Of a stretch of DNA of 46,490 nt, positions 4,253 to 27,363 are shown piece by piece (the stretch's first letter is position 1; the number at the start of each line of letters is the position of its first letter). This DNA comes from a virus (taxonomy: Duplodnaviria; Caudoviricetes), in the IMG/VR virus record IMGVR_UViG_3300025296_000026, positions 1-46,490 of that record; one strand, 5' to 3'. The notes beneath the pieces are model-generated. The model saw only the letters and a list, made by a program, of their open reading frames with translations, made no database searches and was not told the DNA's origin. The position numbers were made by a program, and so were the translations under genes.

Positions 4253-4636
4253 ATGCGGATAACCTACGAAATGATGCACGATAGATGCACGCAATTGAAC
4301 AGGATCGTTAACGGCTATGGCGGTGGACATATGATGGAAAAGGCAAGCCGTAGGGAGGGCTTACTGCAGGACCAAATAAACCAAGACGAGAGCCCTTACG
4401 AGGTAATAGAACAATTAGGATCATGGGCAAACCCAGACGCTAAAGGGCTATACATTCTGAGGAAAGGCCCGTGGAAAGTAGGAAGATTGAAAATGCCAGA
4501 ATACAAAGTGAAGTGTAAGACGAAGAGAGAAGCTTACTCCATTCTGACTTCTATGGTTGATGCTGCGCTAGCGACTGTTATAACAAACCTGCAAATGCGA
4601 AATTTTAGAAAGGAATGGGAAGGGAGAACAACATGA
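4253..4636 (+). CDS. Hypothetical protein
   Basis: 127-aa ORF; ATGA overlap with the next gene. Confidence 0.7.
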   Translation: MRITYEMMHDRCTQLNRIVNGYGGGHMMEKASRREGLLQDQINQDESPYEVIEQLGSWANPDAKGLYILRKGPWKVGRLKMPEYKVKCKTKREAYSILTSMVDAALATVITNLQMRNFRKEWEGRTT

Positions 4637-5693: not shown

Positions 5694-5812
5694 CACACAT
5701 GCGCGTAAGGATTCTGTCTCATGGATAGCATAGAAATTATACGTGTAGCACTTGGGATTATTTGCGCGTGGTATGTCATGGAAGTCGCTATCGACGCGAT
5801 GAAGGAAGACGA

Positions 5813-6064
5813 ATGACGAATAACACTCCAGAGAAGATATCAGATATTTACGTGGCGGCAGATCTTATCAAAGACGTAGCGGAGGGACTAAATACGAAAG
5901 GCTTCGCCTGTGAACATTGCGGAACGATGCGGAGGCATTCACTCGTAGAGTATAGGACATCTTCAGAATTGATTCACCTGTCGAAGCGGTTGATAGATTG
6001 CGCCGTAAGAATAAAAGAAGGAAAGCTTAAGCGTATGGAATACCCGAAATCAGCGCATCGGTAA
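5813..6064 (+). CDS. Hypothetical protein with CxxC
   Basis: ATG 5813 after GAAGGA; CEHCG. Confidence 0.65.
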   Translation: MTNNTPEKISDIYVAADLIKDVAEGLNTKGFACEHCGTMRRHSLVEYRTSSELIHLSKRLIDCAVRIKEGKLKRMEYPKSAHR

Positions 6065-6066
6065 AT

Positions 6067-6100
6067 AGAAAGCCCGGAACCCTCCGGGCTTTCTTATTTT
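6067..6100 (+). terminator. Intrinsic terminator
   Basis: AGAAAGCCCGGA-accc-TCCGGGCTTTCT followed by TATTTT. Confidence 0.75.
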
Positions 6101-6113
6101 AGGAGCAAAATAA

Positions 6114-7691
6114 ATGACACAAGAAAACACTATCAATCAATTCCTATCTGCGCGTAAGGTCTCCACTCCTATCATTGCCATAGAAACACCAGATCAAGGC
6201 GCGACGTTTAAGGGTCTATTGAAAGTCTTAGGCACGGCGCGTGTCTATGGATGGGACGCGGTGCAAGGTTTGCGTATCTGTGCGGGTATCGAAGAAGACG
6301 AACACGAGGCAGAATGGGAAGTGCTATTAGCGTCTTGCCACGGTGAACATATGGCAACAATGAATCCTACGATAGCGTTGTCCTGTGTTCGTAACATTCG
6401 ATTAGATTCCTGCGTTGTTATGTTCAACATACAACGTCATTATGATGATCCCGGAGTCGCGCAGGCTATATGGAATCTAAGAGATCTCTATAAGGCGCAC
6501 GGTAAGACATTGGTCCTGTTGGTCCCGGAGTGTAGGTTACCGAATGAACTTCGGCATGATGTGGTAGTCCTAAGAGAGCCACTTCCAGAGTCGAAAGAAT
6601 TGGCACCAATGGTTGAGAACTTAGTAGTAAGAGCGAAAGATAGTTGTCCTGATTTCCCCGACTTAGATAGCAAGACGCTAGACGCTGTTACGAGTTCGCT
6701 TGCAGGGTTGTCTATGCAACAAGCTGAACAAGTCGCGGCTATGTCGCTCCGTAAGACGGGGATCGATCTAAGCACGCTACGAACGAATCAACGCAGACAA
6801 GTAGAACAGACGCCCGGACTTAGTATTGTGCAGTCTGACTCATTGTTCTCTAACTTACACGGTATGGATTCTCTAGTTGGATTCCTGGAATGCGTGATCA
6901 AAGGCAAGCGGAAGCCGAAGACATTTGTATTTGTGGATGAGATAGAAAAAGCATTTGCGGGCGCGTTCGGTCTGGGAGATTCCTCCGGGACAAGCCAAGA
7001 ACAGCATGGGTATATCTTGCAACATATGCAAGATACGAACGCAAGAGGAATCATACTAGTGGGTGGACCGGGTACGGGTAAGAGCGAACTTGCGAAAGCT
7101 TCTGGTAACGAAGGAGATTGTTGGACTGTTCAATTAGATCTTGGCGGTATGAAAGGATCGCTTGTCGGCGAGTCTGGTGCTATGACGCGGCGCGCCTTAG
7201 ATGTGGTAGACGCATTAGGACAAGGCGAGTGTTTCTGGATTGCTACGTGTAACTCTATCGAATCGTTACCGCCCGAGTTACGTCGGCGCTTTTCGTATGG
7301 CACGTGGTACGTAGAACAACCGAACGAGGAGTCACGGGCTAATATGTGGCACCAGTATAGGAAGCGTTTTGATTGTATAGACGATAGCAAGCCTGCGTAT
7401 GCCATCGCGAACTCGTTAGCTTCAGAGTATGAAGGGTGGACAGGCGCAGAGATTAGAACCTGTTGTTCTATGTCTGCTGATCTTGGTATTTCAATATGGG
7501 AGGCATCCAAGTACATCTCTCCTGTCTATAGGTCGAATGCGGAATCTATTGCACGTATTGAACAGTTAGCCGCGGGGCGCTTTCTATCTGCGAGGAACGG
7601 AGGGTTGTATAAGAATACAAAAGTTGCGGTCCCCGATGGTCTTATAAATCAAGTAACGGGTGAGCGGATTATTTCGATGGACGAAAGCTAG
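6114..7691 (+). CDS. Ycf46-like AAA+ ATPase with permuted motif order
   Basis: Walker B FVFVDEIEK (6924-) precedes Walker A GGPGTGKS (7062-7085); also LVGES, sensor-1 IATCN and LPPELRRRF. Confidence 0.85.
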   Translation: MTQENTINQFLSARKVSTPIIAIETPDQGATFKGLLKVLGTARVYGWDAVQGLRICAGIEEDEHEAEWEVLLASCHGEHMATMNPTIALSCVRNIRLDSCVVMFNIQRHYDDPGVAQAIWNLRDLYKAHGKTLVLLVPECRLPNELRHDVVVLREPLPESKELAPMVENLVVRAKDSCPDFPDLDSKTLDAVTSSLAGLSMQQAEQVAAMSLRKTGIDLSTLRTNQRRQVEQTPGLSIVQSDSLFSNLHGMDSLVGFLECVIKGKRKPKTFVFVDEIEKAFAGAFGLGDSSGTSQEQHGYILQHMQDTNARGIILVGGPGTGKSELAKASGNEGDCWTVQLDLGGMKGSLVGESGAMTRRALDVVDALGQGECFWIATCNSIESLPPELRRRFSYGTWYVEQPNEESRANMWHQYRKRFDCIDDSKPAYAIANSLASEYEGWTGAEIRTCCSMSADLGISIWEASKYISPVYRSNAESIARIEQLAAGRFLSARNGGLYKNTKVAVPDGLINQVTGERIISMDES

Positions 7692-7705
7692 AAAGGAATC
7701 AAACA

Positions 7706-8158
7706 ATGTCGCATGTAGCGAATGTAGAAGTAGAGATCAACAGTCTGACATCCTTAGAACAAGCCTGTAAGAATCTCGGGTTGAAATTCAAGAAAGGACA
7801 AAAGACTTACAAGTGGTATGGCAAGTTTATGAATGATTGGCATACGCAAGACGCCGCAGTGAACAACGGATATGACCCTGAGACATTCGGGAAGTGTGAA
7901 CATGCGATCAGCGTGCCTAATGCAGAGTATGAAGTTGGGGTAGTGCTCTCGAAAGGGTCCAAAAGCTATAGGCTTATCTATGACACTTTCGGCAATGGGA
8001 AAGAGATAGCGAGGCAGTTAGGCGGGGTTCATTTGCCTATCCTAAAAAGAGAATATGCGGTGGCTGTAGCAACTAAGCAATTAGCGATGAAGGGCTACGG
8101 TGTAAGTCGGACAGTTACCAAGGATGGACAAATTAAGATCACGGGGATGAAGGCATGA
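7706..8158 (+). CDS. DUF1257 / Ycf35-like protein
   Basis: MSHV..VEVEI.SL..LEQAC..LG and YEVGV...YRLIYD; usual neighbour of Ycf46-like ATPases. Confidence 0.75.
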   Translation: MSHVANVEVEINSLTSLEQACKNLGLKFKKGQKTYKWYGKFMNDWHTQDAAVNNGYDPETFGKCEHAISVPNAEYEVGVVLSKGSKSYRLIYDTFGNGKEIARQLGGVHLPILKREYAVAVATKQLAMKGYGVSRTVTKDGQIKITGMKA

Positions 8159-8340
8159 AAGAAATAAACATTCTTATTGATAGTGATGGAAACATAGAAC
8201 TCACAACGGAAGGATTCCAAGGGAGTGAATGCAGAGACGAAACACGCGAGCTAGAATGGTCACTTGGAAAGAAGACTGGCGACCAACCAACACGAGAGCA
8301 TTACATTACAAAGAAAGCGAAAGCGAATCTATATGGCTAA
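8155..8340 (+). CDS. DUF2997-like protein
   Basis: EINILIDSDGNIELTTEGFQGSEC...T..LE..LG...PT.E.Y. Confidence 0.8.
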   Translation: MKEINILIDSDGNIELTTEGFQGSECRDETRELEWSLGKKTGDQPTREHYITKKAKANLYG

Positions 8341-8608
8341 GGAAACGGCATCGGTTCTTATTAGTGCAACGGGTTGTTCTATGACGTTCATTTACAACGA
8401 TAGTCTAGAGCCGTTGTTGCGCTTGGGTAAGAGTACGGTCCAACGGGTGAGCCATGTTGAACCCTACCAAGATCATAGAACAAAGGAGATGAATGGATGG
8501 GTTGCGGATATGTCTCCGGTCAACGGGCCCGAACTTGGACCATATGAATTAAGAGACGAGGCGTTAAACGCAGAACGAGAGTGGCTTAGTAAGTCTTTCA
8601 ATCTATAG
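8333..8608 (+). CDS. Small protein of the AAA/DUF1257/DUF2997 module
   Basis: FIY...LG...RVSHVEP...WVADMSPVNGPELGPY..RDEAL.AE.EWL; ATG 8333 overlaps the upstream gene end. Confidence 0.7.
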   Translation: MAKETASVLISATGCSMTFIYNDSLEPLLRLGKSTVQRVSHVEPYQDHRTKEMNGWVADMSPVNGPELGPYELRDEALNAEREWLSKSFNL

Positions 8609-8650: not shown

Positions 8651-9541
8651 ATGACTATTGACGAACAAAGTGTGAACACTATTGCAGACCGTGCTGTCTA
8701 TCTTGTGCTTGATTGGTCTTGCCTTGGGACATGGAAGAGAGTAGAAACGAAGGAAACCACGACAGAGCTTAGAGCATCGAAGCGTTTGATTAAAAGCGAT
8801 GTGGTGTCGGATTTGAACAAGGTACGAAATAGAACACGAACCGTACTCGCTAAGTATTCGTTAAGCTCTTTGTTCCGTCCGGGCGTCTATGTTGTGCCAT
8901 TGGAATATATCAAGACGGTAGACGAGACATTGCAATATGAATCGGGACAGTTAGAACTGGCAAGGAAGAAGCTCGTCAGCGAGTGGGACGATATTATTAG
9001 CGAGGCAAGAAAGAGACTAGGAGATCTTTTCGACCCACTGGACTATGGTAGCGGGGTTCAGGCATCAGAACGTTTTAGCATGTCGTATAGGTTCATCCCT
9101 ATTGCGTCAACGCCTGACATTATCAAAAGCGTAGCGGCTGATACGTATAAGGCAGACTTAGAACGTTCACGGCAGGCAGCGGAGAAGGAATTAGAAGCCT
9201 TTCGCGAGAGCCTACGGATTACCTTGATCGGCATTATTGAGAACATGCGTGCGAATTTGAATAAGCCAGACGGAGAACGTAGGACATTCGGTAAGCGGTT
9301 CTTTAAGAACCTACATGGCTTCATGGATACGTTTGAAAGTAAGAACCTATCAGACGATGGTGAACTCGGCAAGGTTGTTAAGCAATTGAGAGACGTAGCG
9401 AATGGCGTAGATGATCGCGTGCTTAAGGTGAGCAGGGACGAACAAAGCGCATTAGATACTACGCTTAAAGGTATTAGCGATTGCGTTGGCAACATGGTGA
9501 TAGACGAAGGAAGAAAGATTGATCTCTCGGACGTTGCGTAA
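8651..9541 (+). CDS. Helical protein, DUF3150-like
   Basis: G.YVVP and LGDLFDPLDY motifs with coiled coils; RBS AAAGGA. Family call is tentative. Confidence 0.6.
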   Translation: MTIDEQSVNTIADRAVYLVLDWSCLGTWKRVETKETTTELRASKRLIKSDVVSDLNKVRNRTRTVLAKYSLSSLFRPGVYVVPLEYIKTVDETLQYESGQLELARKKLVSEWDDIISEARKRLGDLFDPLDYGSGVQASERFSMSYRFIPIASTPDIIKSVAADTYKADLERSRQAAEKELEAFRESLRITLIGIIENMRANLNKPDGERRTFGKRFFKNLHGFMDTFESKNLSDDGELGKVVKQLRDVANGVDDRVLKVSRDEQSALDTTLKGISDCVGNMVIDEGRKIDLSDVA

Positions 9542-15733: not shown

Positions 15734-16311
15734 ACGATCTTGCGGTAGTTACTCCGTCAGTGTTGCCAGTTGGAAAATTTGAAATAGAAGACTTTGACTT
15801 CTCACCCACCTATTTAAAGCCGAGAGATAACTTTGATTTGAATCAGTGGGAACGACTCGGGCAGTTTATTAGACTAACAAATCAAGCGTGCCAATTCTGG
15901 TGGGGCGATTGGTTGAACATGGGCGAAGAGTCATTTGGAGAAAAAGCATCGCAAGCATTAGAACCTACAGGATGGGACGTTGATACATTGCAAGTCTATT
16001 CTTGGGTCTGTAAGAAAGTGCCTGCTGAGAGTAGGATTACTGGGGTGACGTTTTCTCATTATCAATTGCTTGCGAAGTATCCATTAGAATTTCAACAGGA
16101 ATGGGCGCAGCGAGTGGTGTCTGAGAATATGTCAGTTAGAGGATTGCGCTACGCATTAAAGGAATTAAAAGAGCCGACTAAGCAGGATCAGCCGTGCATC
16201 CTTATACGCTGTAAGAACGATGCTGATGCCGATACGGTAGAGGCATTGCTTCCTGAGAATGTGAAAGACACCTGTGTGATAGAAAGAGTTCGGCGAAAGA
16301 TGAAGGCGTAG
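15730..16311 (+). CDS. LmbU-like DNA-binding protein
   Basis: FWWGDWL..GE..FG.K..QA...TG....TL..Y.WV......R...V.FSHY pattern. Confidence 0.6.
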   Translation: MNDLAVVTPSVLPVGKFEIEDFDFSPTYLKPRDNFDLNQWERLGQFIRLTNQACQFWWGDWLNMGEESFGEKASQALEPTGWDVDTLQVYSWVCKKVPAESRITGVTFSHYQLLAKYPLEFQQEWAQRVVSENMSVRGLRYALKELKEPTKQDQPCILIRCKNDADADTVEALLPENVKDTCVIERVRRKMKA

Positions 16312-16670: not shown

Positions 16671-17203
16671 ATGAGACACCTGAAGACAGAGATAGGCAAT
16701 CGTTATTCTTTGATTACATAGAACGATGGTCGCCTCGATTAGTAGAACGTGGATTCACGGGGAAGGGGTTAAGTTATGCGAAGCGATTAGATTATATGCT
16801 AGTAAGCAACAACGATCACAACCTTTGTGGATGGGCGGAAATCAAGTGTACATTCCGAACAATTGAATCATTACGCAAGGTCTATAGCATTTCTTTATCA
16901 AAGGTAGCAGTCGGTCGTTCTTATGTAGCCCTAACAGAGGTTCCTGCATGGCTCTTTGTTTGGTTTACGAAAGATAACAAATTTGGTTACGTAGATCTTT
17001 CAAAGGTCAAGACTTCGGCAGGGTTTGTTTACTGGGGCGGGTGGAAAAAGAGAGGGCTACCCGGAGACATGGAACCGATGGTTAGAATTCCCATAGATAC
17101 GTTCGCTATGCAGGAATGCAACTTGGATTATGAACATCTTACTGACAGGCGCAACCGGAACGCTCGGCAAGGCTATCTTATGTCATGTCTTAAAGAACAA
17201 TGA
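16661..17203 (+). CDS. PD-(D/E)XK-like nuclease-fold protein
   Basis: LDY...WAEIKC; C-terminal D.EPMV.IP...F. Confidence 0.6.
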   Translation: MGINETPEDRDRQSLFFDYIERWSPRLVERGFTGKGLSYAKRLDYMLVSNNDHNLCGWAEIKCTFRTIESLRKVYSISLSKVAVGRSYVALTEVPAWLFVWFTKDNKFGYVDLSKVKTSAGFVYWGGWKKRGLPGDMEPMVRIPIDTFAMQECNLDYEHLTDRRNRNARQGYLMSCLKEQ

Positions 17204-18146
17204 GAAGGTTGAGCGTATAGCGGCCTTCGCTCGTTCGGAGTCTAGACTGGCTAGTCTAACTCAGGAGTATGCCTCGCATGATGCCTTTCGGCCATTCCTC
17301 GGCGATGTGAGGGACTATGAACGATTAAGGGATGCCTGCGTAGGCATAGATGTAGTAATACATGCTGCGGCTTTGAAACGGGTGGATGATGGGGCATATA
17401 ACCCGTTAGAAATGCACAAGACAAACGTAGTCGGCAGTTTGAATGTTGCCAATGCTGCGAGAGCCGAAGGCGTTAAGAAAGTTATTCTAATATCCTCTGA
17501 TAAAGCTGTCGCCGCTATTAATACCTATGGAGGGAGTAAGTATCAAGCGGAGAATTGTCTTAGAGAACTGAACACCCATTCAGCGCCGAGAGGTACTCTT
17601 ATATCCTGCGTTCGTTACGGGAATGTATTAGCAAGCACGGGGAGCGTTCTTACTATCTGGGAAGGACAACGTAAGCGGCATGAACGCATCTGCGTCACAG
17701 ACGCTACTATGTCTCGCTTTTGGCTGACCATAGGCGAAGCCGTAGATCATATTTTCAAAACTATAGCGATCATGCGTGGCGGAGAGATTGTTATCCCCGT
17801 CTTAAGAAGCGCAACGCTAGATGATCTTGTACGTGCTTATATGTCCTTATTCGGCGATACGTTTGTTCCGTATGATAAGCACATTAGATCTAGCGGCGTT
17901 CGGCTCGGTGGTGAGAAGTACCATGAATCATTGCTGAACGATGACGAGATAGGAAGAGCTATTGCGACAAAGGGTCTTATTGTCGTACCGCCTGCGTTGC
18001 ATTCATGGACTACTCAAGAATGGGAAACGGATCATAGCGTAGTGATCCCGTTATCATATACAAGCAATTATCGTGATTGCTTAAGCTATACACAAAAGGA
18101 ACTACGTTCGTTATTAGAGCAAGTCCTACCCTCTATCAATGGCTAA
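17130..18146 (+). CDS. pseB: UDP-GlcNAc 4,6-dehydratase, PseB/FlaA1 family
   Basis: TGATGTLG, GDVRD, HAAALK.V, YNP.E..KTN..G, SSDKAV, YGGSK, VRYGNV..S.GSV, GEK.HE. Confidence 0.88.
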   Translation: MNILLTGATGTLGKAILCHVLKNNEKVERIAAFARSESRLASLTQEYASHDAFRPFLGDVRDYERLRDACVGIDVVIHAAALKRVDDGAYNPLEMHKTNVVGSLNVANAARAEGVKKVILISSDKAVAAINTYGGSKYQAENCLRELNTHSAPRGTLISCVRYGNVLASTGSVLTIWEGQRKRHERICVTDATMSRFWLTIGEAVDHIFKTIAIMRGGEIVIPVLRSATLDDLVRAYMSLFGDTFVPYDKHIRSSGVRLGGEKYHESLLNDDEIGRAIATKGLIVVPPALHSWTTQEWETDHSVVIPLSYTSNYRDCLSYTQKELRSLLEQVLPSING

Positions 18147-19017
18147 CAAGACGACAAAGATTGTCGGCATTGTTGGATTAGGATCTATGGGGCAGCGGTA
18201 CGCGTCGTATTTGAAAGGGTGCAAGGATACGATTGTTATCGGGTGCGATGTAAGACCGGAAGTACATACAGATGATTACGTTTGTGTTGATAGCGTAGAA
18301 AATTTATTGAACACCGTAGAACCTGACGTAATGATCATTGCGTCACCCGCAGAGCATCATCTAGAGATCTTATATACCGTTCATGATGCCGTGCCTTCGT
18401 GTTCGATTCTTATAGAAAAACCGCTAACCAATAGGCGATTAGAGTTAGAAGATTTCGAGCGGTGCCGCGCCTTTGGTGGGTCTCTTATTGCGGTTGGCTA
18501 CTGTTGGCGATTCCATCCATACACCAACCATTTGAGACGAGTTAGAAACGGCATACGAAATATTACGTTGTACTCAGGAAGCGATATGCAGACATGGCCC
18601 GGACATCACTACGCCGACCCATTGCGTGAATTCAGTCATGAGCTAGATCTTGTGGTGTATCTAACTAAACGCATTACATTAGGAAGTGCAGCGCTGTCGC
18701 CGAGCGGGTTATATGTCATGAATGGAGAACACGCACAGGGCAAGTGGGAGGTAAGAATAGCGCCTTTTGTGAAGGATTATGGACGATGGATCAAAGTAGA
18801 CATGCACGACAAGTCCTCTGTTACTTATCACTGGGACGTAACCAAGGAAACCATTGATGTGATGTATAAGAAACAAGCGAACCAATTAGTGCATGCAAGT
18901 AGGGTAAGTCACTTATTATGCCCGCTGTTGTCTGGCTTAGAGACCACGTTATTAGTAGACGAGATAGATGCAAGGATAGAGGGTCAAGAAACATGGTTAC
19001 CAAAACGCCCTATGTGA
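18139..19017 (+). CDS. Gfo/Idh/MocA family NAD(P) oxidoreductase
   Basis: GLGSMG, IASP...H, LIEKP, VGY..RFHP, E.SHELD. Confidence 0.88.
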   Translation: MANKTTKIVGIVGLGSMGQRYASYLKGCKDTIVIGCDVRPEVHTDDYVCVDSVENLLNTVEPDVMIIASPAEHHLEILYTVHDAVPSCSILIEKPLTNRRLELEDFERCRAFGGSLIAVGYCWRFHPYTNHLRRVRNGIRNITLYSGSDMQTWPGHHYADPLREFSHELDLVVYLTKRITLGSAALSPSGLYVMNGEHAQGKWEVRIAPFVKDYGRWIKVDMHDKSSVTYHWDVTKETIDVMYKKQANQLVHASRVSHLLCPLLSGLETTLLVDEIDARIEGQETWLPKRPM

Positions 19018-19907
19018 TAGCCGAGGCAGGTTCTTGTGGAGATAGTAACTTAGACAAGATGATCCAACAGGTAGAAGAGTGCGCGGGCGCGGGTGCCGAT
19101 GCCGTTAAATTCCAATGGACTTCTAATCCCTTCGCAATGGCGAAGCGCAGAGGGAAAGCATTAAGCGCAGGTTATGCGGGAGTCTATAAGAAATATATTG
19201 CATGGCCTGAAGCATGGCACAAAGAGCTTTCTAATAGGTGTAACGAGTTAGACATAGACTATATGTGCGCTGTCTATCTAGAGCAAGATGTAGAAGTAAT
19301 TGCGCCCTATGTCGCGCATTATAAGATCTCTAGTTTTGAAGCATTAGATAGGTCGCTCTATAGTGCGACAGATAGTTACAGGCGCGAGGGGCAACTTTTA
19401 TTTGTATCTGTTGGGATGTGTTCGGACAGTGAGATTAGAACGATACAAAGTCACATAGAAGCCAACGCAATACATTATGCTCGTCTATTGTATTGTGTTA
19501 GTGCTTACCCTGCGCCGTTAGAGTCATTAGACCTATACAAGATCCAAAGTTTGAACCTTGCGGGGTTCTCAGATCATACGAACCCGAATTACATTACAAG
19601 CGGAATGATTGGCTTCCTTTGTGGCGCTGATTATATTGAAGCGCATATGAGATTAGAAACGACGGACACTTCTAATCCTGACTTCAAGCACGCGATGACC
19701 TGCGACGAATTAGCAGAGTATATAGGAGAGATTCGCATCGGGGCGTTGTCTCTCGGAGGGAAGCGAAGCGAGCGGTACATAATCAAACTATCAAAAGACT
19801 CTCAAAAGATTATGAACAGGAAGGCTGAAGCCGAATCCTTAATGAGCCAGTATAGAGTTTTGAATCGACCGTCTCTAATTGATAGAGGAGGGAAAGAGAG
19901 TGCCTAA
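18993..19907 (+). CDS. Nonulosonic acid synthase, NeuB/PseI/SpsE family
   Basis: VIAEAG, GADAVKFQ, KISSFE, CVSAYPAP, GFSDHT, IEAH. ATG 18993 preferred. Confidence 0.9.
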   Translation: MVTKTPYVIAEAGSCGDSNLDKMIQQVEECAGAGADAVKFQWTSNPFAMAKRRGKALSAGYAGVYKKYIAWPEAWHKELSNRCNELDIDYMCAVYLEQDVEVIAPYVAHYKISSFEALDRSLYSATDSYRREGQLLFVSVGMCSDSEIRTIQSHIEANAIHYARLLYCVSAYPAPLESLDLYKIQSLNLAGFSDHTNPNYITSGMIGFLCGADYIEAHMRLETTDTSNPDFKHAMTCDELAEYIGEIRIGALSLGGKRSERYIIKLSKDSQKIMNRKAEAESLMSQYRVLNRPSLIDRGGKESA

Positions 19908-20346
19908 TGTAGCGTTACGACCTGCGATTGCCGAAGACGCCGAGGCTGTCTTCACTTGGCGTAACGATGAAGAAGTAAGAGCGTTGTCGCGTGATTCCAA
20001 GCCTGTAGAATGGGACGATCATCTATCATGGTTTTCTAATTGCTTGGTTGGTGCGAATAGCGAGTCGGTATGGATTATAGAATACGAAAACATTTCGATA
20101 GGCAGTGGGCGCATAACTAAATATGAAGAAGATGACCGCGCAGAGATTAGTATTGTTTTATCCGAGGAATATAGAGGCAACGGATACGGTAGTGAAGCAT
20201 TGAAACAATTAGTCCATATCGTCCGCGGAATGGGTCGGTTGCCTGTCGCGTGGGTAAGACCTTCTAATGCACGGTCCCTAGCTGCATTCAAGCGGGCGGG
20301 ATTTGATTTCGCTAATCAATTATTAGAACTTCATCACAATGAATGA
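19900..20346 (+). CDS. GNAT N-acetyltransferase, PseH-like
   Basis: LRPA...D....F.WRND..VR..S......DH..WF; RGNGYG; N.RS...F..AGF. GTG 19900 follows GGAGG. Confidence 0.85.
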   Translation: MPNVALRPAIAEDAEAVFTWRNDEEVRALSRDSKPVEWDDHLSWFSNCLVGANSESVWIIEYENISIGSGRITKYEEDDRAEISIVLSEEYRGNGYGSEALKQLVHIVRGMGRLPVAWVRPSNARSLAAFKRAGFDFANQLLELHHNE

Positions 20347-21316
20347 GTATAGCTTACTATCCAGATCATTAGATATCCGACCAAAAGAAAAGCCGTTCGT
20401 AAGTGCGGCATTTGATGGATATGTAATGAAGCATAGCGGAGGTTCACGATGGCATGTGAGTAGTTGGATTGATTACTCGTTAGCTTACACAAAGGGCGCA
20501 ATTGATCGTTCTGTGTTAATCATTTGCGATGATTCTATTGTCGGTGTCTGTCCTGCGGTGCAATGTGGGGAATGTTTGGGCATGGGAGATGACGCCTGTG
20601 CGGGACCGCTGTTAGACGCGGATGTTGATATAGAAGCAGTTTGTAATGTGCTCATTTCATATTTCAAGGATTGCGGGATAGGGTCTATTGATTTCCGATG
20701 GGATCGTTATCCTTTCGATTGTAGAGCGATCATTGCTCGGATAGCATCGTGCTTCAATGTGAATCAGTATGAATGGGAAACGGCTATCGTGCCCTTGTCT
20801 TTGTCGAAAGACGAGCAATTCTTACGTATAAGGAACAGCTATCGTTCTTTAATTACTAAAGCAAAACGTAAGCGTTCTATTGTCTGGGGCACCGCTGCGT
20901 TGTTTGAACACTACCGGTATTGCCATCAGTCTGTCGCAAAGCGCCCAAGGCCACCAGAAACATACGAACATCAACGCCGAGCTTTAGAGTCGGGTTCTGC
21001 ATTCATTGTCGCGGCGACGAATGAAGAACACCCGTATCTAATGGAGTGCTATAAGAAAAACAAGCCAGAGATACGATCTATTCTTGCATGCAATTATGTG
21101 ATGGTTCACAAAGGGCATGGTTATTATGCAAGCGGACCAAGTATAGAGAAGAATTTACAGCACGCCTTACAGTGGGCGGCAATGGAAATTCTTATGGGTC
21201 ATTTAGATGGATGTAGTTATGAGCTTGGATGGTTAAAGGGTGACGGCATAGGATTTTTCAAACGCGGCTTTGGTGGGTCTATTGCGTATGTTGATGCGAT
21301 CAAAGGTAGTTTGTGA
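20339..21316 (+). CDS. FemAB-like (double GNAT) acyl/aminoacyl transferase
   Basis: IR.SYRSLI.KA, YYASG, H.LQW..M, YELG, GIGFFKRGFGG. Confidence 0.75.
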   Translation: MNEYSLLSRSLDIRPKEKPFVSAAFDGYVMKHSGGSRWHVSSWIDYSLAYTKGAIDRSVLIICDDSIVGVCPAVQCGECLGMGDDACAGPLLDADVDIEAVCNVLISYFKDCGIGSIDFRWDRYPFDCRAIIARIASCFNVNQYEWETAIVPLSLSKDEQFLRIRNSYRSLITKAKRKRSIVWGTAALFEHYRYCHQSVAKRPRPPETYEHQRRALESGSAFIVAATNEEHPYLMECYKKNKPEIRSILACNYVMVHKGHGYYASGPSIEKNLQHALQWAAMEILMGHLDGCSYELGWLKGDGIGFFKRGFGGSIAYVDAIKGSL

Positions 21317-22047
21317 CTAAGAAGGTGATTGCCATCGTGCAAGCGAGACTAGGAAGTAAGAGGTTTCCTGGTAAGAGCCTCGCTAGTTTTCATGGTTCGC
21401 CAATGATCTACTCGGTCTTAGATAGAGCCTGCTCCACCAAAGGCATTGCTCATGTTGTCGCCGCAGTCCCAACAAGAGATACGGCATTGATAGATTCTAT
21501 TGAGCGTTACGGTAGAGTCTCAGGCAACAGTGTGTCAATTGTGTACGGACCGGAACGTAATGTCTTACTACGGTTTTTTCTTGCCGCTACGACTTATAAG
21601 GCTGACGTTATTATGCGTATAACTGGTGATTGTCCGTTATGGGTTCCTCGTGCGGGAGAAGAAGTGCTAGCGGCTTATCTAAGTGACCCTGACAAAAGAG
21701 AGTTCTGGTCAAACGATACAAGGAACAGCGGATGGCCTGACGGAACAGATGTGGAAGTCTTCTCTATGTCTCTATTGCGTCGTGCTTGTCGCGCAAGAAA
21801 GCTTACAGACGCAGACTTAGAACACGTGACAACATGGATGCGAAGGACATTAGATAGAAAGGTCGGCGTTGTTCATAGAAGCAAGGATCTACTTTCTCAT
21901 TTGAAATTTTCAGTGGATACGCGCAAGGATTTATTAGATATTTCGACAAGTGAAGCGAAGCGATTAATACAGATCATAGAAGATGGAGGAACAGCACGTG
22001 CCAAAGGGAAGAAAGAAGACTTACAAGAGCTTACCGAAAGAAGTTAA
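21313..22047 (+). CDS. Acylneuraminate cytidylyltransferase, SpsF-type
   Basis: IVQARLGSKRFPGK, GPE.NVL.RF, RITGDCP, PDGTDVEVFS, EHVT, FSVDT..D. Confidence 0.9.
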   Translation: MTKKVIAIVQARLGSKRFPGKSLASFHGSPMIYSVLDRACSTKGIAHVVAAVPTRDTALIDSIERYGRVSGNSVSIVYGPERNVLLRFFLAATTYKADVIMRITGDCPLWVPRAGEEVLAAYLSDPDKREFWSNDTRNSGWPDGTDVEVFSMSLLRRACRARKLTDADLEHVTTWMRRTLDRKVGVVHRSKDLLSHLKFSVDTRKDLLDISTSEAKRLIQIIEDGGTARAKGKKEDLQELTERS

Positions 22048-23335
22048 GAACCTACTATGCACGGAAGATTATCAACTATTAGCCCGTGCGTTCTATTGTA
22101 CTCCGGGCGGATCTCAGGCGAATAGTAAGAGACACGGCCATGTCATAGATAGAACATCTCCTGCGTATGCTATTAGAGGTGAAGGTCCGTATATAGAATT
22201 ATCGAACAAGCGTAGATTGATTGATCTTGCAGGGGCTAATGGGGCTGTTCCGCTTGGGTATGCAGATCCGCAGGTAGAATGCAACGTTCGTTCGCTAGCA
22301 CAAGAGCAAGGCGGTAGCCTCTCATTGCCATCGCCGCTAGAGATAGCAGCATCGGAGGCTATGATTAAGAATCTTACTGATTCTATGAGCGGCAACCATA
22401 TGATAACGAACCCACTAGTTAGATGGGTAAGGACAGGGAGTGAGGCGGTAAGTGCTGCGGTCGCTATCGCGCAGGAAGAAACAAAGCGAATCGATGTAGG
22501 ATGCCTAGAGGGTTCTTATCACGGTTGGCACCCGTGGACACGACAAGCCAAGACATTACCTGCATTCTCATGGTTTAAGAAAGCCAAGACGGACAACGTA
22601 ATAGAACTATTACGGAGGGAAGATGTTGCTGTTGTGTTGATTGAATCGCCACGATTTGATCCCGTGGATGATTCTTATAAGAAGGCTCTAGCTGTTATCA
22701 GAGAGGCATGTAATGCGACAAAGACCTTATTGGCATTCGATGACGTTGTGTTTGGGTTCAGGTTCGCAGAGGGCGGTCTAACTCAAGTATCAAAGGTAAA
22801 GCCTGACCTGATTTGCTTTGCCAAGGCATTAGGCAATGGTTATCCTATCGGGTGCGTTGTGGGCCGCGGTGCGCTTATGGACAAGCATAAGTATAGGGTT
22901 AGTAGTACGTTCGGCGGAGAAATGACAGGATTAGCCGCAGCGATGGCTGTATTAGAAAAGCACGAGCCTCATGGGATGGTAGGAAGAAACGATTATAGAT
23001 TATCTGACACGTGCAGAACATTACGAGCCATAGGTGCAAAGCTCATTCTACGATTGCGAGAGGTCTTAGAAGGAACGCCGATTGATGTAGTAGGAAATCC
23101 GCAGCATTTCAAGTTTGTGCCTCGCGATAGTGCTTCTGATTCGGCGCATAGAGATCTTATGCTGTTCTGTAATCTTTGTTGGATGTTTAGCGACATAAGG
23201 CGCGGCGAATTGGGCGTGTTGATTCATAAGGATGCTAACAATGCAAACCTAGCGATGAATGATGGCGTTATAGATAATATCTGCGAAATCATCACCCGCG
23301 CATCTTCCATAGTGAGTAATTCTAACTATGAGTAA
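21983..23335 (+). CDS. Class III PLP aminotransferase (GSA-aminomutase-like)
   Basis: PGGSQ..SK, LGY, TGSEA...A, YHGW, FDDV..GFR, PDL..FAKALGNG.P (PLP lysine), SSTFGGE. Confidence 0.88.
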   Translation: MEEQHVPKGRKKTYKSLPKEVKNLLCTEDYQLLARAFYCTPGGSQANSKRHGHVIDRTSPAYAIRGEGPYIELSNKRRLIDLAGANGAVPLGYADPQVECNVRSLAQEQGGSLSLPSPLEIAASEAMIKNLTDSMSGNHMITNPLVRWVRTGSEAVSAAVAIAQEETKRIDVGCLEGSYHGWHPWTRQAKTLPAFSWFKKAKTDNVIELLRREDVAVVLIESPRFDPVDDSYKKALAVIREACNATKTLLAFDDVVFGFRFAEGGLTQVSKVKPDLICFAKALGNGYPIGCVVGRGALMDKHKYRVSSTFGGEMTGLAAAMAVLEKHEPHGMVGRNDYRLSDTCRTLRAIGAKLILRLREVLEGTPIDVVGNPQHFKFVPRDSASDSAHRDLMLFCNLCWMFSDIRRGELGVLIHKDANNANLAMNDGVIDNICEIITRASSIVSNSNYE

Positions 23336-23840
23336 TAACCCTGATCATATTAAGGACTTAATCGCAGACCCAAAGAATAGGCGTAAGCATACGCCTCGCA
23401 ATGTGGGTATGATTGTTGATGCACTGCACAAGGTAGGAGCGGGGCGATCTATTGTTATCGATGAAAAGAACGAAATACTCGCAGGGAACGCCACTATAGA
23501 GGCCGCAGGCGAGGCGGGTATAACAAAGGTCAAGGTTATAGAAGCAGAGGGTAATGAGATTGTTGCAGTGAAGCGCAGAGGACTAACAGATGCACAAAAG
23601 AGAGATCTAGCACTCTATGATAATAGAACGGGCGAGTTAGCCGAGTGGGACGTCGATCAACTCCTACAAGATGTCGAGTCTGGCCTTGATCTCTCTACAC
23701 TCTTTTCCGATGATGAACTGGAATCGTTAATGAAAGATGCGACCCGTGCCGCACCTGATGAGTTTACTGAAGTCGATGAGGCGCTTCCTGTCGAGCATCA
23801 TTGTCCTAAGTGCGGATATGAATGGAGCGGAAGTTCGTGA
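23328..23840 (+). CDS. ParB-like N-terminal domain protein with C-terminal Zn ribbon
   Basis: DP.N.RKH, RSIVID....LAGN, DNRT.EL..WD, CPKCGYEW. Confidence 0.85.
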   Translation: MSNNPDHIKDLIADPKNRRKHTPRNVGMIVDALHKVGAGRSIVIDEKNEILAGNATIEAAGEAGITKVKVIEAEGNEIVAVKRRGLTDAQKRDLALYDNRTGELAEWDVDQLLQDVESGLDLSTLFSDDELESLMKDATRAAPDEFTEVDEALPVEHHCPKCGYEWSGSS

Positions 23841-25117
23841 AGATCGTAACGACTTATCGCGTGCCGACTGTATCTTCTATTCGACAGATACCACCGAATG
23901 GCTTGAAAGCCGTCTCTACGTTTTCTGGTGGGGGTGGAACATGTTTGGGTATGACCTTGGCTGGCTATGATGTCGTATGGGCGAATGACTGTGACTCGCA
24001 CGCGCGAGAGACTTATACAGCCAACCTTGGTAAGCCTATTGATGGGCGTCTTCTTAATGATGTGACCGTTGCAGATATTCTGTCCGAGACAGGGCTGAAG
24101 GAAGGCGAGCTAGACGTATTTGAAGGGTCGCCACCCTGCACAAAGTTCTCGACGGCAGGACGTCGCTCAAAGGGATGGAATCGTAAAGAGATTCATGCCG
24201 GAAGAAAACAAGCCAACACGGAGGATTTATTTTTTGAATGGCTGCGGTTAGCGAAAGGTCTACGTCCCAAGGTTTTTGTGGCCGAGAATGTTGCTGGTCT
24301 GGTGAAGGGAGTTTCAAAGGGATATTTTAAAGACATCCTAAAAGAGATGAAGTCATTGGGTTATCAAGTTACGGCACGACTGTGTGATGCACAGTGGTTA
24401 GGTGTTCCACAGCGACGCAATCGCATCATTTTCATTGGAGTACGAGATGACATTGGACGAGCGCCTGTTTTTCCTAAACCGTTATTCCGTCAATGGACTG
24501 TGCGACAAGCCATAGGCCACCTGTTAACGTCATCATCATTTGCGCTTAAGAATCAGCCGTCAACATTTGATGGGTCGCCTGATTTACCAGGGGCCACTAT
24601 TGCCGCTTCTGATTTCAGTGGGAGCGAGAAGTCATGGCGTAGGAATATGGTCGAGGTTAGAGGCGACCGCAGCGGATATAGAAAGTTCGCCATCATTACT
24701 GATGAACCGTCTACGACCGTCCAGGCTGCCGGGTTGGATAATGGATACCCCACACAGCACACGCTGAAAATAGATTTCAAGGACAGTTATAAGTCTGCAC
24801 AGCCATCAATGCAGAACGTCGCAGATAAATCATCTCCAACAATCAGAAGCGGTCGTTCTTTTCAGATAGAACAAGAAGTTGAAGTAGAACAAATTGTAGG
24901 GAATGGTCAATATAAAACCATCCGACGGCACCTCACGATTCCAGAGGTCAAGCGTCTATGCTCGTTTCCTGATGACTATGTGCTAGACGGGTCGTTTGGA
25001 AAGCAATGGATGCGGCTTGGAAATGCCGTGCCGCCCATGATGGCGTACCACATTGCTCGCGCCATTCGGACGGGAATCTTCCGTCGAGGCGTCGGTGGTC
25101 GTATATTAGAAGACTAG
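23837..25117 (+). CDS. DNA (cytosine-5) methyltransferase
   Basis: FSGGGG, GSPPC, ENV, VPQRR.R, R..SFPD, GNAVPP; GTG start overlaps the upstream TGA. Confidence 0.93.
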   Translation: MKIVTTYRVPTVSSIRQIPPNGLKAVSTFSGGGGTCLGMTLAGYDVVWANDCDSHARETYTANLGKPIDGRLLNDVTVADILSETGLKEGELDVFEGSPPCTKFSTAGRRSKGWNRKEIHAGRKQANTEDLFFEWLRLAKGLRPKVFVAENVAGLVKGVSKGYFKDILKEMKSLGYQVTARLCDAQWLGVPQRRNRIIFIGVRDDIGRAPVFPKPLFRQWTVRQAIGHLLTSSSFALKNQPSTFDGSPDLPGATIAASDFSGSEKSWRRNMVEVRGDRSGYRKFAIITDEPSTTVQAAGLDNGYPTQHTLKIDFKDSYKSAQPSMQNVADKSSPTIRSGRSFQIEQEVEVEQIVGNGQYKTIRRHLTIPEVKRLCSFPDDYVLDGSFGKQWMRLGNAVPPMMAYHIARAIRTGIFRRGVGGRILED

Positions 25118-25973: not shown

Positions 25974-27363
25974 CTCACCCGCAATGCTAGCGGCGGAAGA
26001 TTCTAATAGTCGTCAAGCGTTAGAAAGTTTGACGCCATTAGAAGCGACGCTCTTACGCTACCGTTGGCGGTTTTGGGCAAGGCCATCACAGCGGGCTCCA
26101 GAGTGGGACTGGGGTATCTGGCTTCTTATGACAGGCCGCGGGTTTGGTAAGACACGGGCAGGCGCGCAATGGGTTATAGAACAAGCACAGACCCCAGGGA
26201 ATAGGATAGCGATTGTCGGGCGCATTCCTGCTGATGGTCGTGATGTAATGGTCGGCGGTGAGTCTGGGATCTTATCTAACTCGCCACCTGATTTCCTGCC
26301 AGAGTATTCTCCAAGTCAAAGACGGTTACGATGGCCGAACAAGTCAGAGGCTAGATTATTCTCTAGTGAGAAACCCGAAGATCTAAGAGGCCCAAACTTT
26401 CATTGTGCGTGGGTGGATGAACTTGCGAAGTATGATCATGCGCAAGAAACCTGGGATACCTTAGTCATGGCGGTGCGCCTACCGTCTAATCCTAGGATTG
26501 TCGTCACGACAACGCCGCGCCCTATACCGATTATTAAGCAGTTAATAGACGATAAGCATTGTCACGTTACGCATGGGTCTATCTATGAGAACAGAACGAA
26601 CCTATCGGGGAAATTCTTTGAGCGATTAATCAAACGATATGAAGGCACCTACTTAGGGCAACAAGAGTTAGAAGGATTGTTGATTTCTGACAGACCGGGC
26701 GCGTTATGGACGAGAGATCTTATAGAGAAACATCGAATACGCAGCGAGCCGAAAGAGTTAGTGCGAATTGTAATTGCCATCGACCCGCCTGCCACTTCGG
26801 GAGAAGGGAGTGCCGAGGCGGGAATCGTGGCAGTAGGATTAGCAGCGGATGGGATGTCTTATGTCTTAGCTGATACAAGCTTACACGGGACGCCTGACGA
26901 ATGGGGCAGGCAAGCAGTTAGGCTCTATGATAGATACGATGCTGATCAAATAGTGGGTGAGGTTAACAACGGCGGTGAGATGGTAGGGTTTACTGTCAAA
27001 GAATGCGCGAAAGCCCTACATAGAGATGGCGAACGAAAGTCGAGCGTTGTTCCGTATGTGCCTGTTAGAGCAAGTAGAGGGAAGTTAACCAGGGCAGAAC
27101 CGATAGCAGCGCTATATTCCCAGGGTCGAGTTAAACATGTGGGTGTCTTAGCAGAGTTAGAAGATCAATTAACCGCATGGGTTCCGGGTGAGAAATCACC
27201 AGATAGATTAGATGCGCTTGTCTGGGCGTTGACATCTCTTATCGTCTATGGGAATACGGACATAGAAACCTGGGGCGGTAATGAACCGAGCGAGGGTAGC
27301 GAACACGTACAGTCCACTGCTATCAAAGAGGGCGCATGGTTCCCTCCTGCCTCACGATGGTAA
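25933..27363 (+). CDS. terL: Terminase large subunit
   Basis: GRGFGKTR, LRGP....AWVDE, TTTP, AIDP, EVNNGG, SPDRLDA. Confidence 0.95.
   Translation: MDSENERSLSAENSSPAMLAAEDSNSRQALESLTPLEATLLRYRWRFWARPSQRAPEWDWGIWLLMTGRGFGKTRAGAQWVIEQAQTPGNRIAIVGRIPADGRDVMVGGESGILSNSPPDFLPEYSPSQRRLRWPNKSEARLFSSEKPEDLRGPNFHCAWVDELAKYDHAQETWDTLVMAVRLPSNPRIVVTTTPRPIPIIKQLIDDKHCHVTHGSIYENRTNLSGKFFERLIKRYEGTYLGQQELEGLLISDRPGALWTRDLIEKHRIRSEPKELVRIVIAIDPPATSGEGSAEAGIVAVGLAADGMSYVLADTSLHGTPDEWGRQAVRLYDRYDADQIVGEVNNGGEMVGFTVKECAKALHRDGERKSSVVPYVPVRASRGKLTRAEPIAALYSQGRVKHVGVLAELEDQLTAWVPGEKSPDRLDALVWALTSLIVYGNTDIETWGGNEPSEGSEHVQSTAIKEGAWFPPASRW

Follow-up and report, generated by a model that had tools for sequence, protein, structure and literature searches.

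A phage Ycf46-like AAA ATPase family with the Walker B block placed ahead of Walker A

Introduction

Among the closest described systems to the protein studied here are the Ycf46 ATPases of cyanobacteria and plastids, which belong to the same family and have the same partner genes, encoding Ycf35 (DUF1257) and a DUF2997 protein. Ycf46 is assigned to a three-gene stress operon that is induced by stress, with a reported KaiC interaction and an effect on carbon concentration (PMC13683863), and a start with the residues MSH is described for Ycf35 (PMC13060386). The cyanobacterial genes are chromosomal and their motifs stand in the normal order, as in a cyanobacterial MAG copy (L080).

For AAA+ proteins, it is taken as a fixed rule that Walker B follows Walker A and, to our knowledge, all other AAA proteins have the normal order with Walker A first. 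In P-loop sheets, the active-site loops lie on top, with the short links at the bottom (PMC7758060). Motor-type P-loops are given the strand order 2-3-4-1-5, and the topologies described are all numbered from the Walker A strand (PMC7758060; bioRxiv 10.64898/2026.08.08.743454). Here, we describe a phage ATPase, and the family to which it belongs, in which the two blocks are exchanged.

Results

The DNA analysed, referred to as the window, is a viral record of 46,490 bases that is present in marine metagenome runs, with no RNA run among those listed, and carries the genes of a tailed phage (terminase, portal, prohead protease, capsid, tail, tape-measure, DnaB, RusA and nuclease genes). In its early/replication arm, a single open frame on the plus strand (6114-7691) encodes a 525-aa protein, P0001, which its ORF, Pfam matches and a profile map identify as a Ycf46-like AAA ATPase of two domains, the second of which is permuted. 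As in other Ycf46-like modules, a degenerate N-terminal AAA domain is followed by an intact one, and DUF1257 and DUF2997 genes are neighbours. PHROG and NCBIfam returned no functional name, and the Pfam AAA match of the ATPase is restricted to aa 313-363 (model positions 1-51 of 131). Because Pfam sees only this third of the AAA domain, rewired enzymes are easily mis-annotated as fragments. Elsewhere in the window, a run of sugar-nucleotide genes (17130-23335) lies between the replication and packaging genes and encodes a Polysacc_synt_2 dehydratase, an oxidoreductase, a NeuB synthase, a GNAT acetyltransferase, a cytidylyltransferase and a class-III aminotransferase, a set that we take to resemble the pseudaminic/legionaminic acid pathway; at 23328-25117, a gene with a ParB-like nuclease domain precedes a C5 cytosine methyltransferase gene.

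The ATPase has one Walker A motif (GGPGTGKS, aa 317-324, nt 7062-7085), and the only hhhhDE sequence (VFVDE, aa 272-276) is found 40 residues upstream of it. The latter is part of FVFVDEIEK (aa 271-279, nt 6924-6950), with DSSGTS (289-294) and MQD (305-307, ending at nt 7034) further along. Past Walker A, the helix containing VGES (351-354) leads directly into the sensor-1 strand FWIATCN (374-380, nt 7233-7253), after which come LPPE (385-388) and RRRF (390-393). Of the five D[DE] pairs of the protein, which start at 58, 107, 271, 419 and 519, none falls between Walker A and sensor 1, and no second Walker B was found. An earlier note, made from the letters alone, had placed the Walker B block, Walker A and sensor 1 at these positions and had claimed intact catalytic residues in one frame, and both statements are borne out by the 525-aa ORF and the motif scan. 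Its view that Walker A precedes Walker B in the canonical Ycf46-like order agrees with the normal-order relatives.

The first domain, D1 (aa 1-230, 6114-6803), is AAA-like and degenerate, with normal strand order in the model and profile; it lacks GK[ST] and DE and is predicted to be inactive. The second domain, D2, opens with an entry segment and helix α0 (aa 236-263, 6819-6902, from model and profile), which here runs into the Walker B strand and not the Walker A strand. The moved block (aa 268-308, 6915-7037), delimited by profile and Cdc48 alignment, comprises β3 with D275 and E276, the pore-loop-2 region and α3. It is followed by the Walker A block (aa 309-369, 7038-7220), consisting of β1, the P-loop with K323 and S324, α1, β2, pore loop 1 (GSLVGES) and α2, and by a segment (aa 370-402, 7221-7319) that holds β4 with the sensor 1 residue N380, α4 with the arginine-finger motif RRRF (R392) and β5. 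A helical lid subdomain with GWTGAEI (aa 403-497, 7320-7604), recognized in models and profile, leads to a C-terminal R-x-hydrophobic-x-hydrophobic tail (7665-7688), in which R518 is invariant in an alignment of 119 sequences and which is also carried by the DUF3150-like partner. All these parts are on the plus strand. The exchanged units are unequal, β3-α3 measuring about 40 aa and β1-α1-β2-α2 about 61 aa.

The exchange was mapped with a profile built from 29 normal-order relatives that came out of locus searches. Profile positions 16-243 correspond to aa 15-260 of the ATPase (N segment), 323-359 to aa 272-308 (B segment, E 1.7e-9), 259-318 to aa 309-368 (A segment, E 2.6e-21) and 362-499 to aa 372-503 (C segment). 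The segments are thus arranged N-B-A-C, the two middle ones abutting and exchanged with no repeat and no loss, and since the normal-order profile gives significant E-values for the swapped segments, the block order is real and not due to chance. An identical exchange was seen when the permuted-family profile was aligned with both domains of solved Cdc48 (2 alignments), and D1 is collinear with the normal-order profile and has a five-strand pattern in the model. A circular permutation has new termini, with the C-terminal part at the N-terminus; in this protein the end segments are collinear with those of relatives. The N-terminal and the sensor-1/lid parts are unmoved, in agreement with the earlier proposal of a swap of adjacent internal units.

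Homologues with the Walker B block first were sought and found family-wide. All 119 top homologues have this order (115 by pattern, 4 by eye), as do 80 of 80 loci from viral locus searches and 42 genome loci, the other genome loci being 31 of normal order and 14 unclassified ORFs, of which 13 are fragments. The N-B-A-C arrangement with matching breakpoints was present in 235 of 236 full-length relatives, the remaining one having a degenerate Walker B. It was also present in 150 of the 150 best representatives at 50% identity, so that there are at least 150 permuted clusters at this level. When 12 divergent members were used for searching, 159 of the 162 added ORFs were permuted and the others were partial or degenerate. 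Spacings are regular: in 480 of 504 relatives, sensor 1 follows Walker A at a distance of 60 residues, and I/V/L/M-G-G and Walker B are 27 residues apart in 405 of the 439 relatives in which both were located. In total, 517 distinct sequences of the permuted type were collected, and the permuted ATPase is a large family rather than a single odd gene. The 11 matches longer than 920 aa (longer or fused forms) were all of normal order and none was permuted, which is weak evidence.

The recorded hosts include Acidobacteriota, which predominate, as well as Nitrospirota, Planctomycetota, Armatimonadota, Myxococcota, Chloroflexota, Bacillota and Thermotogota. Permuted members include gp103 of the isolated phage Tunturi_3 (XOB77284.1) and a protein of Nitrospira moscoviensis (WP_053379210.1, complete genome) with a cluster-mate in N. 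tepida; as both a phage and a bacterium in culture carry a member, the family is testable now. A divergent permuted sub-lineage (L046:5995-7503 and L323) has the Walker B sequence DEGGK and an altered sensor-1 region and may be losing or changing its activity.

Apart from chain order and pore loop 1, D2 has the hallmarks of the classical AAA clade: a GxxGxGK[ST] Walker A after a strand, an hhhhDE Walker B that aligns with that of Cdc48, a sensor 1 and second region of homology with an arginine finger (ATCN..LPPELRRRF), and the helical lid subdomain. The clade's chain order, β1 (Walker A)-β2-β3 (Walker B)-β4-β5, is not followed and, because β3-α3 comes before β1, we file the protein as a rewired descendant of the AAA clade and not as a regular member. 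The RRRF finger motif is two residues shorter than RxGRFD and, we assume, recalls the finger of Vps4/spastin/katanin. Pore loop 1 lacks an aromatic residue, with Leu in GSLVGES in place of the Trp/Tyr/Phe of Cdc48 D2, a feature common to the normal-order sisters.

In the 119-sequence alignment, K323, D275, E276, N380 and R392 are invariant; in an alignment of 149 sequences, K323, E276 and N380 are invariant and D275, R391 and R392 are kept in at least 90%, and the Walker B DE is retained in 235 of 236 full-length relatives. With its catalytic K, D, E, N and R kept, the protein is predicted to be a likely active remodelling motor. By analogy with AAA biochemistry, K323 and S324 would bind ATP-Mg, E276 would activate water, N380 would act as the sensor and R390-R392 would act in trans in a hexamer, with D1 as a non-catalytic scaffold ring. 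We hold with good confidence that this is a Ycf46-like AAA ATPase that has its Walker B block first, a predicted normal active site in three dimensions and a likely role as an ATP-driven ring motor that remodels complexes with its DUF1257, DUF2997 and DUF3150-like neighbours.

It is conceivable, and in our view unlikely, that the order is real and the fold kept but that nucleotide binding is weak or missing, the protein then forming a scaffold or decoy ring. Such a reading would fit the last P-loop Gly, which is replaced in 148 of 235 permuted proteins (by Ala in 133) versus 0 of 44 normal-order ones and has changed about 15 times on a tree of 73 permuted proteins, as well as the DEGGK sequence of the L046/L323 sub-lineage and the shortened finger motif. 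The replacement of the Gly could be a sign that some members of the family bind nucleotide less well, and its loss is possibly a consequence of the new α3-β1 link. However, K, D, E, N and R are invariant or nearly so across sequences that are only about 40% alike, and the ATPase of this phage keeps the textbook GPGTGKS. Inteins, which favour sites such as the P-loop and sensor 1, occur in 5 of 150 permuted representatives at precisely these places (P-loop in two, sensor 1 in three), which also speaks against a ring that has given up ATP.

AlphaFold modelled the whole ATPase with a pLDDT of 93.3 and D2 alone, with its five strands, with 94.0. The whole model matched the D1-D2 shape of p97/Drg1 (Z 19.6, rmsd 4.6, 402 aligned), and the D2 model matched Vps4 (Z 16.2, rmsd 3.0, 214 of 278 aligned), the values for Vps4 and spastin together being Z 16 and rmsd about 3 over 204-214 of 278 residues. 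In-order Foldseek alignments of D2 gave an rmsd near 10. Both the D2 aligner matches and the Foldseek value would fit a block that is out of register, though neither demonstrates it directly. Comparison of the model with canonical AAA+ domains, as suggested by the earlier note, showed the resemblance of D2 to Vps4/spastin and yielded no residue map for the moved block.

As an independent test, mean-field covariation was calculated from 381 permuted sequences (Meff 274; 29,674 pairs). The pair ranked 1 of 29,674 is T270-G369, which joins the start of β3 to the end of α2; these residues are 99 apart here and 2 apart in the normal chain (profile positions 321 and 319), and are chain neighbours in the normal form only. 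The top 50 pairs include T308-D366, H304-D366, H304-W375, I277-A377, V272-W375, L315-V400 and F273-A327, and the covariation packs α3 on α2, α4 and pore loop 1. With strand limits chosen by hand and each strand score taken as the maximum over offsets, the best four of ten strand pairs were the normal neighbours β3-β4, β3-β2, β1-β5 and β1-β4, for which the chance expectation is 1 in 210. The β3-β2 pairing is the weaker one (best listed pair at rank 373), and some expected contacts rank low (274-339 at 26,845; 275-377 at 15,825; 313-376 at 4,435), poor scores occurring mainly at invariant positions and for β3-β2. From covariation, and with support from the models, we infer the normal spatial sheet order β2-β3-β4-β1-β5, which would be traversed with the chain-order topology 3-1-4-2-5 instead of 2-3-4-1-5.

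Three links on the non-catalytic bottom edge of the sheet would be rerouted, namely α0 to β3, α3 to β1 and α2 to β4. Each would keep its direction and move by at most two strands, and the helices would stay on their face. In terms of sheet positions, the new links would run from 1 to 3 and from 2 to 4, next to the old link from 3 to 5. Since the link directions are kept, no helix would change face, which would explain why the swap is tolerated. Covariation does not distinguish contacts within a chain from those between chains, and the Walker B block could accordingly fold into a neighbouring subunit, each active site then being built from two chains. We regard this domain swap as very improbable, because the models of the monomer are compact and of high confidence (pTM 0.89 and 0.91) and the links, short and of fixed length (27 and about 40 residues), fit a path within the same chain.

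The assembly was checked in assembled contigs, not raw reads, from 4 of the 20 metagenome runs that contain the virus. In run X17, positions 5800-8200 lie in one contig with 18 letters differing from the window, run X16 covers 6460-8200 and run X19 5800-7540, each in one piece, and run X1 is identical to the window and is possibly the source of the record. No joints, gaps or loose ends were found at the junctions in the contigs of these four runs. Within the ATPase gene, the runs differ at 15 positions, and 15 of 15 SNPs are synonymous. Although the window is metagenomic and assembled contigs are its sole basis, an assembly artefact, or an upstream DEIEK left over from a separate degenerate domain, the two outcomes that the earlier note had named as fatal to its claim, can be put aside as having next to no probability, being refuted by the contigs of three other runs (X16, X17, X19) that cross all junctions unbroken, by the lack of a second Walker B together with the fixed Walker A-sensor 1 spacing, and by an order common to 517 distinct relatives, including those of Tunturi_3 and N. 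moscoviensis.

For phylogeny, proteins were thinned at 62% identity and 73 permuted and 44 normal-order ones were cut into the N, A, B and C segments, 12 sequences whose motifs were missed by the search pattern being left out. Each of the four segment trees separated permuted from normal-order proteins fully (support values 1.0, 0.93, 0.95 and 0.97), so that the moved block shares its lineage with the rest of the gene. In a partitioned tree, with the root placed arbitrarily on a clostridial copy, this split has a support of 100, and the sister of the permuted clade is a group of eight normal-order proteins, five of them from Planctomycetota (support 99.5). The monophyly is partly built in, because permuted sequences entered the set through their similarity to this ATPase. 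Judged from these sequence trees, the permuted ATPases descend from within the Ycf46-like family as one clade joined to a normal-order subgroup; the normal order, being that of all other AAA proteins, is the ancestral one.

The swap would have arisen by one event in a mobile-element lineage, most simply by an internal tandem duplication and the subsequent loss of complementary copies. The changes that mark the clade, RRRF for RxGRFD and the frequent replacement of the last P-loop Gly, would have come later or concurrently. No duplication intermediates were seen among the 517 permuted-type sequences, which are best matches only and could miss rare ones; their longest Walker A-sensor 1 spacing is 63.

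The ATPase family is a hot spot for homing elements. Inteins occupy four sites, in carriers of normal (P0124, P0125, P0126, P0129, P0130, P0131) and permuted order (P0136, P0195, P0199, P0215, P0247). One site, where the Walker B strand starts, coincides with the left breakpoint of the swap; the others are pore loop 1, sensor 1 and the P-loop. At 6 of 80 viral loci with the normal-order ATPase (L214, L216, L218, L219, L224 and L225), the gene breaks off within Walker B, after the D codon and before the E codon, and in the four checked the reading resumes about 810 nt later. The insert carries a 186-aa ORF that is HNH endonuclease-like by eye, and a group I intron was detected in L214:5952-6760 (Rfam, 72.6 bits). 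Normal-order genes have an intein where the left breakpoint lies and an intron within Walker B, but the idea that the swap was selected as an escape from homing elements is weakened because inteins occur in permuted members as well. Homing elements may still have been the source of the original DNA break.

In this phage, all four partner genes follow the ATPase gene on the same plus strand. A DUF1257 (Ycf35-like) gene (7706-8158), whose product starts with MSH, has a Pfam match just under the cut-off (E 3.4e-4) that relatives pass; a DUF2997 gene (8155-8340) matches at E 4.6e-13; a conserved gene for a small protein of about 90 aa, w/o Pfam family (8333-8608), belongs to cluster c3; and a gene for a DUF3150-like helical protein of 296 aa (8651-9541; cluster c0; Pfam E 0.0038, under the cut-off) ends in the shared tail. 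Among 120 permuted loci, DUF3150-like genes occur at 112, DUF1257-like at 82, DUF2997-like at 72 and c3 at 33; the corresponding counts at 102 normal-order loci are 59, 69, 50 and 29. At permuted loci, the tail was found on 87 of 104 DUF3150-like proteins and on 47 of 119 ATPases, and at normal-order loci on 36 of 53 and 30 of 98, respectively; among unrelated ORFs it occurs in 104 of 1,374. At 11 permuted loci, the module also contains a SWIM zinc-finger-like gene of cluster c21 with weak Pfam matches (for example L082:8733-9257 and L095:4549-4836), which was not identified in the module of this phage.

Discussion

Because the permuted ATPase has the same partners as its normal-order sisters, the two most likely share one function. 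From this comparison, that function is most likely ATP-driven remodelling within an uncharacterised mobile-element module. Our tentative guess, which we hold to be less likely than not, is that early in infection the tail-bearing DUF3150-like partner presents complexes on which the ATPase acts.

The matched solved chains that were inspected all have the normal order (2 alignments shown), and among them none with the Walker B block before Walker A turned up. Searches of the open literature yielded no report of this family or of a non-circular permutation in an AAA+ protein. The main text of the Tunturi paper (PMC11924767) contains neither 'ATPase' nor 'Walker', and the term 'permut' in PMC6957218, PMC10853773 and bioRxiv 10.64898/2026.10.19.760177 concerns other proteins.

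The permuted ATPase would be a new topological variant of a known family. Its nearest relatives are the normal-order Ycf46-like ATPases encoded by phages and by elements of Planctomycetota (among them L049, L052 and Rhodobacter phage RcTiptonus gp60, QXN72530.1), which share the degenerate D1 followed by D2, the DEIEK..G..DSG Walker B block, the GSLVG[EQ]S pore loop and the partners, but have Walker A first, an RxGRFD or RAERFD finger and a GK[ST] P-loop in 44 of 44. Set side by side with these close sisters, which have the same partners, the permuted family could show what chain connectivity does to folding, ATP coupling and pore-loop motion in ring motors. Cdc48/p97/VAT, Rix7/NVL, Vps4 and spastin share all motif blocks and the lid, p97/Drg1 resembling the ATPase in its D1-D2 shape and Vps4/spastin in the shape of D2; theirs is an aromatic pore loop, and the ATPase is without an N-domain.

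Natural motif reordering in a P-loop NTPase is also known from the YlqF/YawG family of circularly permuted GTPases. Nug1 is named as a circularly permuted GTPase (PMC9196750). In such GTPases the permutation is circular and creates new termini, whereas the permuted ATPase keeps its ends and two of its internal blocks have changed places. Non-circular permutations are described in the HK97/BPP-1 capsid fold and in DNA methyltransferases and are called rare (PMC5701804); these represent the same class of event in unrelated folds. The permuted family probably represents an active AAA+ motor, natural and widespread, whose nucleotide-binding core is permuted in a non-circular way, in which a 3-1-4-2-5 topology outside the described types was fixed once in mobile elements, spread over at least 150 clusters at 50% identity, and chain order is free as long as the crossover directions are kept. 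It also offers a test case for how new topologies arise by multi-step rearrangement.
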